Under the pieces are notes generated by a model. That model worked only from the letters and a program-made list of their open reading frames with translations. It was not told where the DNA came from and searched no databases. DNA of 64,000 nt, from NCBI GenBank assembly GCA_964431915.1, contig CAYSLI010000002.1:14013-78012 (forward strand), in the 5' to 3' direction. Every line of letters starts with the position of its first letter. Position 1 is the first letter of the stretch. A program made the translations under genes and the position numbers. Shown in pieces: positions 22,036 through 57,091 of this stretch. This stretch comes from an uncultured Candidatus Saccharibacteria bacterium (GTDB lineage Bacteria > Patescibacteriota > Minisyncoccia > Minisyncoccales > CAZKCU01).

Positions 22036-22041
22036 TTTCGC

Positions 22042-22070
22042 TTGATTTTCATTAAAAAGTACGATATAAT
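22042..22070 (+). promoter_or_regulatory. sigma70-like promoter of the tRNA/HE transcription unit
   Basis: TTGATT-17 nt-TATAAT; -10 ends 6 nt before C1 of tRNA-fMet. Confidence 0.45.
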
Positions 22071-22075
22071 AACAC

Positions 22076-22378
22076 CGCGCCGTGGAGGAGTAGTACCTTG
22101 CGAGGCCCATAAAATCTTGTGGCCCAGAATGGCAACATTCTGTGGAAAATTCCCGAAATTGCTGGGAACCCCCGTAAGATAGCGAGCTTGTGAGCTCTAT
22201 CTCATGGGGCAATCAGCAGCCAAGCCGAGCACATAAAGTGTTATGTGCTTGGAAGGTTCAGAGGCTATAATGGGAACTTCCTTTTTAAAGAAGGAAGATG
22301 GTATAGTCCATTCCATTTGGAAACAAATGGTTAATATTAAAGAACCTCGAGACGTCCGTGCAATTCGGACCGGCGCAA
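22076..22378 (+). tRNA. initiator tRNA-fMet(CAU), split by a group I intron (exons 22076-22110 and 22343-22378)
   Basis: Joined exons form a cloverleaf: CGCGCCG/CGGCGCA acceptor with C1xA72, A11:U24, stem CGAGG/CCTCG, loop CCCAUAA, T arm GTCCG-TGCAATT-CGGAC, A73. Confidence 0.8.
22111..22342 (+). ncRNA. group I intron (IC3-like core, no ORF) in the anticodon loop after CAU
   Basis: P1 CCAU/GUGG with U.G at the 5' splice site; P/Q/R/S-like AAATTGCTGGGAA, AATCAGCAGCC, GTTCAGAGGCTATAA, AAGATGGTATAGTCC; P2-P9 helices all pair; terminal G22342. Confidence 0.8.
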
Positions 22379-22386
22379 CTAGATTA

Positions 22387-22458
22387 GCCGGTGTAGCTTA
22401 ATGGTTAAAGTGGGGCTCTCATAAGGCTTAGATGAAGGTTCGATTCCTTCCATCGGCA
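22387..22458 (+). tRNA. tRNA with CAU anticodon (elongator Met or Ile2), wobble-rich anticodon stem
   Basis: GCCGGTG/CATCGGC acceptor, D loop AATGGTTA, loop CTCATAA, T arm GAAGG-TTCGATT-CCTTC; anticodon stem has 3 G.U pairs. Confidence 0.7.
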
Positions 22459-22469
22459 CTCAAATTTTT

Positions 22470-22518
22470 GGTGGGTAAGTAAGACTGAAGTCGGGGATTC
22501 GATTCCCGTCACCTGCAC
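22470..22518 (+). pseudogene. tRNA-like remnant (T-arm plus 3' acceptor strand only)
   Basis: CGGGG-ATTCGAT-TCCCG followed by TCACCTG-C; no matching 5' acceptor, D or anticodon arm. Confidence 0.35.
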
Positions 22519-22523
22519 TAAAT

Positions 22524-23477
22524 ATGAGGAAAATAAAGGAATCTGTTAGAATAAAAGAAATTGGAACCAAATGGAATGACTCTATCGAGAATCTTTTATA
22601 TAATTGGCATTGGAAGGAGAATTTAATGCACAAAGAAATTGGAAAGAAACTTGGTATTCCACGCCCCACTATAACCCGTTGGTTTAGACAGTTAGGAATT
22701 CCTTCTCAGAGTTGCGCTCGGTTTACAAATAATAATCTATTGTATGTAGGACCTAACCGTCTGCCTAAAAAACCAAGATTACCAAAAAAGCCTCACTTCC
22801 GCATTTCGGTTGATGAAAATTTCTTTAAAAATTGGTCTTCACAGATGGCTTATGTTTTAGGGTATTTTACTGCTGATGGAAATATGTTTGTTAATCCGAA
22901 TGGATCTCATTATATAGGATTTACTTCCACGGACTATGATTTAATATCTAATGTGCGAGAAATTTTAGGCTCTGAGCATAAAATAGGAGTACAAGAATAC
23001 GAAAACCGCAAAGGCAGAATTCAATATTGTTTACAAATCGGAGGTAAGAAGCTATTTCAGGATTTACTTAATCTTGGATTAACGCCAAATAAAAGTAAAA
23101 AGGTAGAATTACCTAAAATCCCTAAAGTTTATTTTAAGCATTTTATTAGAGGATATTTTGATGGAGATGGGTGTGTGAGCTTTGGGTTTTATCAGAAAAA
23201 AGATAGAAGAAAACTTGGCTCTACTTTAATCACAAGGTTTAGTTCTGGTAATAGAAAATTTCTTAAAGATTTATTAAAATTTCTTCGAATATATACAAGA
23301 ATAAAAGGAGGTTGCATTTATCGGAAACAAGAAGGAAGTTATGATTTAGCATTCAGTATTAGAGATAGCTTCAGGCTTTATGAATTTATGTATAAAGATG
23401 CTACAGAGAATCAATTTTTGGAAAGAAAATATAATAAATTTCAAGAAGCAATAAAATATTATGCGGGTGTAGCTTAG
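22524..23477 (+). CDS. free-standing homing endonuclease: N-terminal HTH + double-motif LAGLIDADG
   Basis: HTH EIGKKLGIPRPTITRWFRQLGI; LAGLIDADG motifs YVLGYFTADGNMF and FIRGYFDGDGCVSF; stop codon 23475-23477 lies inside tRNA-Asp. Confidence 0.85.
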   Translation: MRKIKESVRIKEIGTKWNDSIENLLYNWHWKENLMHKEIGKKLGIPRPTITRWFRQLGIPSQSCARFTNNNLLYVGPNRLPKKPRLPKKPHFRISVDENFFKNWSSQMAYVLGYFTADGNMFVNPNGSHYIGFTSTDYDLISNVREILGSEHKIGVQEYENRKGRIQYCLQIGGKKLFQDLLNLGLTPNKSKKVELPKIPKVYFKHFIRGYFDGDGCVSFGFYQKKDRRKLGSTLITRFSSGNRKFLKDLLKFLRIYTRIKGGCIYRKQEGSYDLAFSIRDSFRLYEFMYKDATENQFLERKYNKFQEAIKYYAGVA

Positions 23478-23537
23478 TTCGGATAAAGCGCCACTCTGTC
23501 ACAGTGGAGATCGTGGGTTCAAGTCCCATCGCCCGCG
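23463..23537 (+). tRNA. tRNA-Asp(GUC)
   Basis: GCGGGTG/CGCCCGC acceptor, loop CTGTCAC on CCACT/AGTGG, T arm GTGGG-TTCAAGT-CCCAT, G73. Confidence 0.9.
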
Positions 23538-23543
23538 CCTGAA

Positions 23544-23607
23544 TAGTTAGACACGAACTCTCTTTGTTGAAGGAGGGTTGTGGGTTCGAGTCCCATCGTC
23601 CCCGCCA
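23544..23607 (+). pseudogene. 5'-truncated tRNA pseudogene (Asn GUU-like loop) with intact T-arm, 3' acceptor strand and encoded CCA
   Basis: TA-GTT-AGACACG-AAC, TCTCT-TTGTTGA-AGGAG (mismatched), GTGGG-TTCGAGT-CCCAT, CGTCCCC-G-CCA; no 5' acceptor strand. Confidence 0.5.
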
Positions 23608-23634
23608 AAAATCGCCCTCAGGGCGATTTTTTTT
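23607..23634 (+). terminator. rho-independent terminator of the tRNA/HE unit
   Basis: AAAA-ATCGCCC-TCA-GGGCGAT-TTTTTTT. Confidence 0.75.
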
Positions 23635-23736
23635 GGTTTATTCTTCAAATTGAGTTCAAATTTTGACCATATTTTAGTAGTAGTTATCCACATATTTTTA
23701 CTTGAAATCTGTTTAAAATTAGGGTAAAATGGATTA

Positions 23737-50204: not shown

Positions 50205-50287
50205 GGGTAGGTACTCAAGTGGACAACGAGGTGTGGCTGTAAACCACATGGCTTCGGCCTACGGGGGTTCGAATCCCTCCCTACCCA
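50205..50287 (+). tRNA. tRNA-Tyr(GUA)
   Basis: GGGTAGG/CCTACCC acceptor, loop CTGTAAA, long variable arm, T loop TTCGAAT. Confidence 0.9.
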
Positions 50288-50299
50288 CAAACTTTTTAT

Positions 50300-50373
50300 G
50301 CCTGAGTAGCTCAGTTAGATAGAGCATTCGCATGGTAAGCGAAAGGTCGGCGGTGCAACTCCGCCCTCAGGCT
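50300..50373 (+). tRNA. tRNA-Thr(GGU) with non-canonical T loop
   Basis: GCCTGAG/CTCAGGC acceptor, TTCGC-ATGGTAA-GCGAA, T arm GGCGG-TGCAACT-CCGCC, D loop AGTTAGATA without GG. Confidence 0.85.
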
Positions 50374-50381
50374 CATATGCC

Positions 50382-50448
50382 CCGTAGAGAAATTTCGACT
50401 GCTGCGGGGTAGTAAAATAAATAATAATTTGTCGAAATTCTTCTACGG
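50382..50448 (+). promoter_or_regulatory. long imperfect hairpin ending 3 nt before the rpmG start
   Basis: CCGTAGAGAAATTTCGAC pairs with GTCGAAATTCTTCTACGG (18 positions: 1 mismatch, 1 G.U). Confidence 0.4.
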
Positions 50449-50451
50449 AAT

Positions 50452-50613
50452 ATGCCAACAAAAAAACCATTTATAAAACTTCAGTGTTCAGAGTGCAAAA
50501 GGATTAATTATTTTACTCATAAATCAAAAAAAATAACTGAGAAGAAATTAGAATTGAAAAAATTCTGTAAGTGGTGCAGAAAACATACGGTGCATAAAGA
50601 AACCAAGAAATAA
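50452..50613 (+). CDS. rpmG: 50S ribosomal protein L33
   Basis: Hand-translated [27 protein letters not shown]...[16 protein letters not shown]; below the ORF-track cut-off. Confidence 0.88.
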
Positions 50614-50616
50614 AAA

Positions 50617-50687
50617 GGGGACTTAGTTTAGCGGTAAAATAGAGCTCTCCAAAAGCTCAGTCGGGGGTTCAATTCCCTCAGTCCCCG
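50617..50687 (+). tRNA. tRNA-Trp(CCA)
   Basis: GGGGACT/AGTCCCC acceptor, GAGCT-CTCCAAA-AGCTC, T loop TTCAATT. Confidence 0.88.
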
Positions 50688-50691
50688 CAAA

Positions 50692-56891: not shown

Positions 56892-57081
56892 AAAGAGGTT
56901 GGTGATTCGCCATAAGATTGGTTTTTGTGTATCGGTAATACTCCTTCGCGGTAAGAATTACCAACCTCTTTAACATATACTTAAATATCCGCAGACAGCA
57001 GGCAATTTATGTAAGTCCTGCCGAGGATAAAATACATAGGTTCTAGCTATGTAATCTGTCTGCGGTAAAACGCAGATTTTT
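56892..57081 (+). promoter_or_regulatory. rplJ (L10) leader with long helices and a terminator/antiterminator arrangement
   Basis: AAAGAGGTTGGT/ACCAACCTCTTT (56892/56960); CCGCAGACAG/CTGTCTGCGG (56989/57056) competing with TCTGCG-GTAAAA-CGCAGA-TTTTT (57059-57081). Confidence 0.55.
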
Positions 57082-57091
57082 AATTAAAGAA

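Follow-up and report, generated by a model that had tools for sequence, protein, structure and literature searches.

A putative selfish homing endonuclease gene at the 5' boundary of tRNA-Asp in Patescibacteria

Introduction

How does a gene for a DNA-cutting enzyme come to lie between the tRNA genes of a bacterium, with its stop codon inside one of them? We ask this of a 64,000-nucleotide stretch of DNA from an uncultured Candidatus Saccharibacteria bacterium (NCBI GenBank assembly GCA_964431915.1, contig CAYSLI010000002.1, positions 14,013 to 78,012 of the forward strand), which we call the window and in which positions are counted from the first letter. The open reading frame (ORF) in question, at 22524-23477, encodes a 317-aa protein with an N-terminal helix-turn-helix (HTH) and two LAGLIDADG motifs. 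An earlier description, made from the letters alone (the sequence-only reading), took it for a free-standing endonuclease gene, saw a throttle on the nuclease in its overlap with tRNA-Asp, and proposed that it works together with a group I intron in the nearby tRNA-fMet gene. Comparing the locus with its relatives, we think it likely that the ORF is a selfish, free-standing LAGLIDADG homing endonuclease gene, and we predict that its enzyme is specific for the 5' junction of tRNA-Asp(GUC).

Results

The gene family has its home directly in front of tRNA-Asp

The last 15 nt of the ORF (GCG GGT GTA GCT TAG, 23463-23477), which make up its four last sense codons and the TAG stop, are at the same time nucleotides 1-15 of a tRNA-Asp gene; ARAGORN and Rfam both bear out the earlier claim that the stop codon lies inside this tRNA. 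A scan of species-representative genomes returns 513 relatives, of which we analyse the best 80. At 58 of these 80 loci ARAGORN places a tRNA-Asp(GTC) on the same strand, starting anywhere from 56 nt after to 102 nt before the end of the ORF. At a further 17 the tRNA-Asp at the ORF end is split by a group I intron at position 35/36, three loci (L009, L016 and L042) carry a short 5' fragment of tRNA-Asp there, and the remaining two run off their contigs. Thus at all 78 assessable loci, which come from Patescibacteria and Omnitrophota, the ORF ends at the 5' end of tRNA-Asp(GUC). The upstream neighbor is tRNA-Met(CAT) in Patescibacteria and tRNA-Val(TAC) in the genomes labeled Omnitrophota. The home of the family is therefore immediately 5' of tRNA-Asp, at the Met/Asp junction in the one phylum and the Val/Asp junction in the other, and its constant partner is the 5' end of tRNA-Asp, not tRNA-fMet.

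How far the ORF reaches into the tRNA varies. It reads into tRNA-Asp at 51 of 75 loci (roughly 68%), usually by 15 or 10 nt; the overlaps recorded are 10, 11, 15, 21-24 and 47-102 nt, with all three reading frames in use. The stop is supplied either by U13-A14-G15, which leaves a protein tail of the form G/A-x-V-A/V, or in another frame by U8-A9-G10, while about a third of the family (about 32%) has a stop of its own 1-56 nt before the tRNA. As an independent check, 43 of the 119 top homologous proteins end in [GA]x[VM][AV], the frame-0 translation of the tRNA 5' end. The nearest relatives found on contigs (77-79% and 62% identity) all show the order tRNA-Met, tRNA-Met, ORF, tRNA-Asp with a stop 15 or 10 nt into tRNA-Asp, and none has a group I intron. 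The overlap recurs across the family and is not a chance feature of the window. Across the family the distance from the upstream tRNA to the ATG is often 3-19 nt. The element is little more than the ORF itself, without a leader and, in most members, without a Shine-Dalgarno sequence or a stop of its own.

We considered a phage origin and rejected it: viral contigs hold only distant relatives (at most 37% identity), which lack the tRNA-Asp link and seldom lie near tRNAs (3/80 are near any tRNA). One further locus stands apart. At L024:1240-4095 a single open frame of 2.8 kb has the endonuclease domain and the tRNA-derived tail AGVV at its end; a gene-calling artefact, a fusion or an arrangement like that of an intein could account for it.

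Closely related genomes carry the empty site

If the gene is mobile, relatives should differ in whether they hold it. We use the neighboring 168-aa gene as an anchor for a metagenome scan, which yields 80 related loci, 56 of them with a readable interval from tRNA-Met to tRNA-Asp. The endonuclease gene is present at 4 of the 56 (L099, L151, L159 and L160), whereas 33 have a spacer of merely 0-16 nt between the two tRNAs. The two closest relatives, L087 and L088, share 91-92% identity with the window for GatA, 92-93% for the 168-aa protein and 87% for PheS; both read fMet-Met-Asp with 2-5 nt between Met and Asp, and both lack the gene as well as the intron. In L087 the empty junction reads ...CCATCGGCACAT followed directly by GGGGATGTAGCTCAATTGG..., also given as ...GGTTCGATTCCTTCCATCGGCACAT followed by GGGGATGTAGCTCAATTGGCTAGAGCAC.... 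The CTAAAT that precedes the ATG in the window resembles the native Met/Asp spacers TAAAAT and AAAAT, which implies that the ORF begins where tRNA-Asp begins in the empty site. The presence/absence survey that had been suggested for this locus thus finds the ORF polymorphic at a fixed site, with empty sites intact, as expected of a mobile gene, and by comparison of these sequences we read it as a gain in the window lineage.

The longer Met-Asp spacers of the anchor set (L098, L166, L117, L132, L150, L164, L147 and L101) hold no degraded endonuclease copies by profile search of their three-frame translations; the spacer of L101 contains an unrelated gene on the opposite strand. In some loci (L003:5700-7100, also L135, L136, L141 and L154) the tRNA block is inverted relative to gatA/pheS, with or without the endonuclease gene.

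An imported block in the tRNA operon of the window

In the window the gene sits in one compact tRNA operon (22040-23640), flanked by gatA and the 168-aa gene and by pheS/pheT. Its features are, in order:

22042-22070, plus strand: promoter-like site TTGATT-17-TATAAT (consensus scan; near-identical sequence in the gene-less L087 and L088).
22076-22110, plus strand: tRNA-fMet exon 1, ending at U36 of the anticodon CAU (identical to the intron-less tRNA-fMet of L088).
22111-22342, plus strand: ORF-less group I intron of 232 nt at anticodon loop position 36/37 of tRNA-fMet (Rfam RF00028, 84.2 bits; boundaries from the U/...G rule and comparison with L088).
22343-22378, plus strand: tRNA-fMet exon 2 (36/36 identical to L088).
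22387-22459, plus strand: resident tRNA-Met(CAT) (ARAGORN, Rfam; 71/72 identical to the tRNA-Met of the gene-less L087).
22470-22517, plus strand: 5'-truncated tRNA-Met-like remnant, the putative left end of the inserted block (alignment with the intact tRNA-Met of L001).
22524-23477, plus strand: free-standing gene for a 317-aa HTH and double-motif LAGLIDADG homing endonuclease (element proper 22524-23462, which has no stop codon of its own).
23463-23539, plus strand: tRNA-Asp(GTC) of a 'foreign' sequence type, GCGGGTGTAGCTTAG... (ARAGORN; Rfam 66.5 bits; nucleotides 1-15 encode AGVA and the TAG stop).
23540-23607, plus strand: pseudogene of the resident tRNA-Asp (its 3' 33 nt, 23575-23607, equal L087 and L088; ARAGORN and Rfam detect no tRNA).
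23607-23641, plus strand: intrinsic terminator-like hairpin (23607-23631) and T-run at the operon end (scan; similar terminator in the gene-less L088).

The spliced exons of tRNA-fMet fold as a tRNA-Met(CAT) with the initiator C1-A72 mismatch. Its intron is the sole group I core that Rfam finds here (match 22100-22330); no second core surrounds the ORF, which starts 145 nt after the end of exon 2 (22378). Together with the tRNA boundaries, this confirms that the gene is free-standing and lies outside the tRNA-fMet intron. The tRNA-like remnant that had been noticed just before the ORF is also real: it aligns with the intact tRNA-Met that L001 has at the same position, and 6 nt (CTAAAT) separate its 3' end from the ATG. 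Elsewhere in the window we find an ordinary tRNA-Tyr/Thr/Trp cluster (50205-50688) and an L10 leader upstream of ribosomal protein genes (56971-57091).

Against the two empty relatives, the flanks match closely: promoter and fMet exon 1 at 82/83, exon 2 at 36/36, tRNA-Met at 71/72 (L087) and the downstream region at 130/144. The tRNA-Asp of the window (GCGGGTGTAGCTTAG...CGCCCGCGCC) differs in type from the resident tRNA-Asp of L087 and L088 (GGGGATGTAGCTCAATTGG...CGTCCCCGCCA) and in alignment resembles that of L001, L126 and L130. Behind it lies a stump (23540-23607) whose last 33 nt are identical to L087 and L088, whose 5' two-thirds are scrambled or lost, and whose anticodon reads GTT. Because of those 33 nt we take the stump for what is left of the resident tRNA-Asp; a tRNA-Asn, as the GTT would have it, was considered and discarded on the same ground and for want of a tRNA fold. 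The sequences are thus best described by an incoming block of about 1.1 kb (about 22460-23574), made up of a donor tRNA-Met fragment, the endonuclease gene and a donor-type tRNA-Asp, whose insertion destroyed the 5' part of the resident tRNA-Asp and left its 3' stump. Flanking donor markers were, on this comparison, co-converted or replaced along with the gene, and L247, which encodes an 83% identical protein, is similarly structured: the gene stands between the first 16 nt of a resident tRNA-Asp, on its upstream side, and a different tRNA-Asp downstream.

Such scars recur. In L093, 27 nt of the tRNA-Asp 5' end are duplicated, and the scar fragments of L247, L093, L016, L042 and L009 end at about nucleotides 10-27 of tRNA-Asp, which is suggestive, not decisive, of a break in the 5' third of the tRNA. 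At L247:1-140, in the closest relative by identity, we also see a 12-nt stretch, TAAATATTATGG, that resembles the 3' end of the endonuclease ORF, and a good promoter-like TTGAAA-17-TATAAT before the gene; these hint that the lineage went through successive events and has its own promoter. In L016:3528-4960 (Omnitrophota) the order is tRNA-Val, a 245-nt spacer that contains repeats, an intact tRNA-Asp, a terminator, the endonuclease gene and an 18-20-nt 5' fragment of tRNA-Asp; it looks as if the gene, on moving or being duplicated, took the first nucleotides of the tRNA with it.

The flanking tRNAs themselves form a mosaic. The resident tRNA-Asp of L087 and that of L088 are of one type, with no difference in the stretches read, and the two tRNA-fMet genes are very similar; yet the tRNA-Met genes of the two loci (L087:5195-5267 and L088:1574-1647) are very unlike despite identical flanks, the window copy matching the first at 71/72 and the second at 48/72. 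Across the clade of L087 to L166, tRNA-Asp occurs in many sequence types, and in two deep classes (GTAGCTYA... and GTRGTGTAGCC...). Mosaicism of tRNA-Asp and tRNA-Met is the outcome that repeated break and repair with divergent donors would be expected to give. The remnant before the ATG (22470-22517) shares a 7-nt internal deletion with the remnants of L002, a filled locus, and L158, an empty one. These three (L002:165-219; L158:1260-1320) have differing T-stems, each still paired (CGGGG/TCCCG, GTGGG/CCCAC and ACAGG/CCTGT), and the hairpin right before the ATG may be under selection, for example as a processing signal.

The protein is predicted to be an active monomeric enzyme

Does the protein look able to do this? 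Pfam finds LAGLIDADG_3 (1e-14, in two stretches) and LAGLIDADG_1, and at residues 37-56 a weak HTH_23, a model that matches 16 of 26 diverse family members. The two motifs read LGYFTADG (D118) and RGYFDGDG (D215), and both aspartates are invariant in an alignment of these 26. An AlphaFold model (mean confidence score, pLDDT, 87) has a four-helix N-terminal domain (residues 8-56), a low-confidence linker of about 40 residues and a core that is a double alpha-beta-beta-alpha-beta-beta-alpha. Foldseek matches the model best, with probability 1.0, to bI3 maturase, I-Tsp061I, I-AniI, the I-OnuI family and I-SceI, all monomeric LAGLIDADG proteins; identity to the solved structures is merely 11-18%, and sequence-level matches in the PDB are limited to I-Tsp061I and I-MsoI. 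The invariant aspartates, the N-terminal HTH and the pseudo-dimeric fold of the model support the monomeric HTH-LAGLIDADG type that the sequence-only reading had assigned. The ratio of nonsynonymous to synonymous substitutions (dN/dS) against three relatives is 0.13-0.20, which indicates purifying selection. From sequence and model together, the protein is probably a functional, catalytically active monomeric LAGLIDADG enzyme with an added DNA-binding domain.

The ORF opens at ATG 22524, and since the N-terminus is conserved from Met1 across the family, the start codon is fixed there. We rejected an internal start at M35 (ATG 22626, with AAGGAG and a promoter-like 22576-22604): residues 1-34 are conserved in the family, homologues share Met1, M35 is not conserved, and its apparent Shine-Dalgarno sequence consists of conserved W-K-E codons. 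The family has two forms, a long one of about 315 aa with HTH and core and a short one of about 225 aa with the core alone, of which the short is the more numerous. A 90% cluster database contains 1,657 relatives, and clustering at 50% identity gives 1,292 clusters for E <= 1e-30. No NCBIfam model covers the family; the matches there are limited to intein-containing proteins, far below cut-off.

A proposed homing cycle at the tRNA-Asp junction

The mechanism that we propose runs as follows. The enzyme would recognize the Met/Asp (or Val/Asp) junction together with the first 10-20 bp of tRNA-Asp, and would cut empty alleles at the junction or in the 5' part of tRNA-Asp. Repair of the double-strand break would then copy the endonuclease gene, with co-conversion of the flanking tRNA sequences, and the insertion would split the recognition site and so protect filled alleles. 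Two kinds of target had been put forward by the sequence-only reading: neighboring tRNA genes, which the family site at tRNA-Asp makes likely, and the intron-less tRNA-fMet, which the distribution of gene and intron does not support.

As for expression, a gene with no leader, no stop of its own and no terminator-like site between 22042 and 23607 in our scan besides one intron hairpin should be transcribed within the tRNA precursor, from the promoter of the tRNA operon. Maturation of the 3' end of the upstream tRNA would release a near-leaderless endonuclease mRNA, and RNase P cleavage at 23463 (tRNA-Asp +1) would strip the stop codon and leave a non-stop mRNA to be handled by trans-translation. 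Full-length enzyme would come solely from precursors translated before they are processed, and its expression would be low. The geometry in the sequence, with the ATG 6 nt after the remnant and the stop in tRNA-Asp, fits such a tRNA-punctuated mRNA. The promoter-like and terminator-like sequences at 22042 and 23607 that had been said to serve gene and tRNAs alike are indeed found, and the promoter sequence is kept in relatives that lack the ORF, which makes co-transcription plausible.

Several results weigh against parts of this account. First, the gene is 77% and 62% identical between genomes, about as much as GatA and PheS (74% and 60-63%), and with a divergence so close to that of housekeeping genes, vertical persistence with repeated loss is inseparable from horizontal spread. 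Second, the 5' part of the stump has diverged too far for simple decay, which leaves the exact path of recombination unclear. Third, the promoter and terminator are consensus matches, and promoter-like matches in the region are no more numerous than shuffling leads one to expect, so that these signals are plausible, not proven. Finally, coupling to tRNA processing is not obligatory, given the third of the family with its own stop and the promoter-like sequence of L247.

Is the overlap a throttle?

The shared stop codon invites the view that the overlap is an adaptation, trading tRNA-Asp maturation against endonuclease synthesis. It occurs in some 68% of the family and in two phyla, the window mRNA would have no in-frame stop after RNase P cleavage, and the missing Shine-Dalgarno sequence also points to low expression. 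The alternative is that it is a neutral by-product of an ORF-only insertion flush with the tRNA. The overlaps vary in length, all three frames are used and about 32% of the loci have their own stop 1-56 nt upstream, from which the overlap looks mainly like such a by-product. The UAG at tRNA positions 8-10 and 13-15, moreover, is also found in tRNA-Asp genes without the endonuclease gene, so no special adaptation of the tRNA is needed. On balance we lean toward the by-product, and hold an adaptive throttle to be plausible but the less probable of the two.

Group I introns in the adjacent tRNA-Asp

A second question concerns the ORF-less group I introns that Patescibacteria tRNA-Asp has at position 35/36. 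At the level of the family, the endonuclease could be the mobility factor that they lack. Nakagawa et al. 2026 describe tRNA introns as of limited mobility, since they carry no endonuclease genes (PMC13011429). In the filled loci with a split tRNA-Asp, exon 1 ends ...CUGU, the sequence between the two boundaries runs AGA...GCAGC ... AUAGUC ... G, and exon 2 opens CAC.... An intron about 35 bp from the insertion point would be carried along by co-conversion during homing. It is present in 15-18 of 80 filled loci (about 20%), in excess of the 3 of 95 complete Patescibacteria genomes reported (PMC13011429), with a Fisher p of 1e-4 to 8e-4 from a test that is naive to phylogeny and samples that differ in taxon composition; none of about 52 empty loci of the anchor clade has it. 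However, about 77% of filled loci are intron-less, so the intron is not needed for immunity, and both elements may simply build up in the same lineages. That the endonuclease moves these introns is a lead that we rate as less likely than not, and it does not apply to the window itself, whose tRNA-Asp is intron-less.

Is it a host protein?

Could the protein instead be a domesticated host protein with a LAGLIDADG/HTH architecture, for instance a regulator like WhiA, one that controls the tRNA operon, or a maturase of tRNA group I introns, inherited vertically at a fixed locus? Purifying selection, a divergence close to that of housekeeping genes and a fixed position in two phyla would all fit, bI3 maturase and the bifunctional I-AniI are among the best structural matches, and 3 of the 26 members weakly match the WhiA LAGLIDADG model. 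Domesticated forms such as WhiA have lost the catalytic residues, and the HTH of WhiA is C-terminal. WhiA likewise joins a LAGLIDADG scaffold to an HTH, but in the present family the HTH is N-terminal, the catalytic aspartates are kept and the distribution is patchy. The gene is present at a mere 4 of the 56 loci of the immediate clade and missing from the closest relatives, the foreign tRNA-Asp and the junction scars point to DNA breakage and repair, and tRNA-Asp introns of the type discussed above self-splice in vitro without protein (PMC13011429). We regard a host function as very unlikely.

The tRNA-fMet intron

Least of all do we credit the proposal that the endonuclease collaborates with the ORF-less tRNA-fMet intron, cutting intron-less tRNA-fMet while the intron protects and both spread together: the two share an operon, lie about 145 nt apart, are both missing from L087 and L088 and have a precedent in cyanophage psbA (F-CphI), yet the family-wide partner is tRNA-Asp, at least seven loci have the gene without the intron (L001, L002, L003, L099, L151, L159 and L160), four have an intron at the fMet position without the gene (L114, L130, L137 and L139), both occur together in the window alone, and this distribution already largely refutes it. 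The resident tRNA-Met between intron and gene, moreover, is unchanged (71/72 to L087), and intron and gene are therefore not one conversion tract. The intron is polymorphic in its own right, being absent from the two nearest relatives and found in the four more distant loci (L114:4968-5204, L130:870-1142, L137:1345-1543 and L139:2319-2517). Its position (36/37 by the U/...G rule) may differ from the 33/34 listed for Patescibacteria Met(CAU) introns by Nakagawa et al. (PMC13011429).

Other insertions in the same tRNA operon

In relatives of the window organism the tRNA-fMet/tRNA-Met junction also holds small ORFs of selfish type. L090:3287-3973 is a LAGLIDADG_2 gene; L100:5231-5962 (also L103, L141 and L154) belongs to an HTH family of 225-243 aa that reads into tRNA-Met, with the tail ...AGVVQLARTPHS in L100; L127:5099-5902 matches LAGLIDADG_3 weakly; L145:5147-5401 is a GIY-YIG gene; and L128:3078-3431 and L164 carry four-helix proteins of the 23S_rRNA_IVP type. 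It seems that the spacers between tRNAs in this operon serve generally as a landing zone.

Discussion

What appears to be new here is less the mechanism than the place. In full-text literature searches we found no description of LAGLIDADG genes abutting tRNA-Asp in bacteria. The class of mechanism is familiar. Seemingly undescribed are the site, an architecture of ORF alone with a stop borrowed from the tRNA, how broad the family is, and a possible role in moving tRNA genes and introns. In its fullest form, which we put forward tentatively and consider less than likely as a whole, the proposal is of an undescribed class of homing element at tRNA gene boundaries of ultra-small bacteria: an ORF-only insert, gated by tRNA processing, that drives horizontal replacement of tRNA-Asp and tRNA-Met and mobilizes the tRNA-Asp 35/36 introns.

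The 5' boundary of a tRNA gene in cellular chromosomes, spanning Patescibacteria and Omnitrophota, would be a new kind of homing site. Homing there offers a possible explanation for the tRNA-Asp/tRNA-Met mosaicism among otherwise near-identical Patescibacteria loci and, for the ORF-less tRNA-Asp introns described in 2026, a possible way of moving that can be tested. The stop borrowed from a tRNA in an ORF-only architecture makes a compact natural case of competition between translation and tRNA processing. On the practical side, the family supplies monomeric LAGLIDADG scaffolds that carry an additional HTH domain and whose natural targets would lie in a universally conserved gene.

How does the element compare with known systems? 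I-Tsp061I, I-AniI, the I-OnuI family, I-SceI and I-DmoI share its fold, with two LAGLIDADG helices that each bear a catalytic acidic residue. Enzymes of this type cut both strands at a specific target of roughly 20 bp and leave 4-nt 3' overhangs. The genes of those monomeric enzymes lie within introns, group I or archaeal, in rRNA genes or organellar genes; the window gene, by contrast, is free-standing and sits at a tRNA gene boundary, and its protein has the extra N-terminal HTH on a linker of about 40 residues. Nearer in host range, LAGLIDADG genes in rRNA insertion sequences and introns of bacteria of the candidate phyla radiation (CPR) were reportedly described by Brown et al. in 2015. 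Tsurumaki et al. 2024 find them inside insertions and introns of the 16S and 23S rRNA genes in CPR bacteria and never mention tRNA (PMC11270868). These genes have hosts of the same phylum level and belong to the same superfamily, and like the element in the window they home to highly conserved genes for structural RNAs; the window element differs in being intergenic and flush with tRNA-Asp.

In cyanophages, the free-standing endonuclease F-CphI homes collaboratively with an ORF-less intron in psbA. The likeness lies in the roughly 20% of family loci whose adjacent tRNA-Asp carries an ORF-less group I intron, near enough to be co-converted; unlike that case, the sole intron of the window is in tRNA-fMet and unassociated with the gene. 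Since most filled alleles have no intron, the site of intron insertion is probably not the target. For the predicted expression, the parallel is the 'tRNA punctuation' of polycistronic mitochondrial transcripts, reportedly described by Ojala et al. in 1981. There too, tRNA processing sites bound the mRNA, untranslated regions are almost absent and the end of the ORF is incomplete at the cleavage site. Mitochondrial transcripts gain a complete stop codon when polyadenylation follows the cleavage, whereas cleavage here would remove a stop codon that is located inside the tRNA.

The closest functional analogue, judged by analogy of layout and predicted action, is SegB, a GIY-YIG homing endonuclease whose free-standing gene lies in the tRNA gene cluster of phage T4. 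Its nuclease superfamily is not that of the window protein, it lies in a phage genome and has its own expression signals, and it is neither fused to the 5' end of a tRNA nor bound to one tRNA species across phyla. What the two have in common is a free-standing gene between tRNAs, a target in the tRNA region of alleles that lack the gene (predicted, in the case of the window) and a flanking tRNA that is co-converted.

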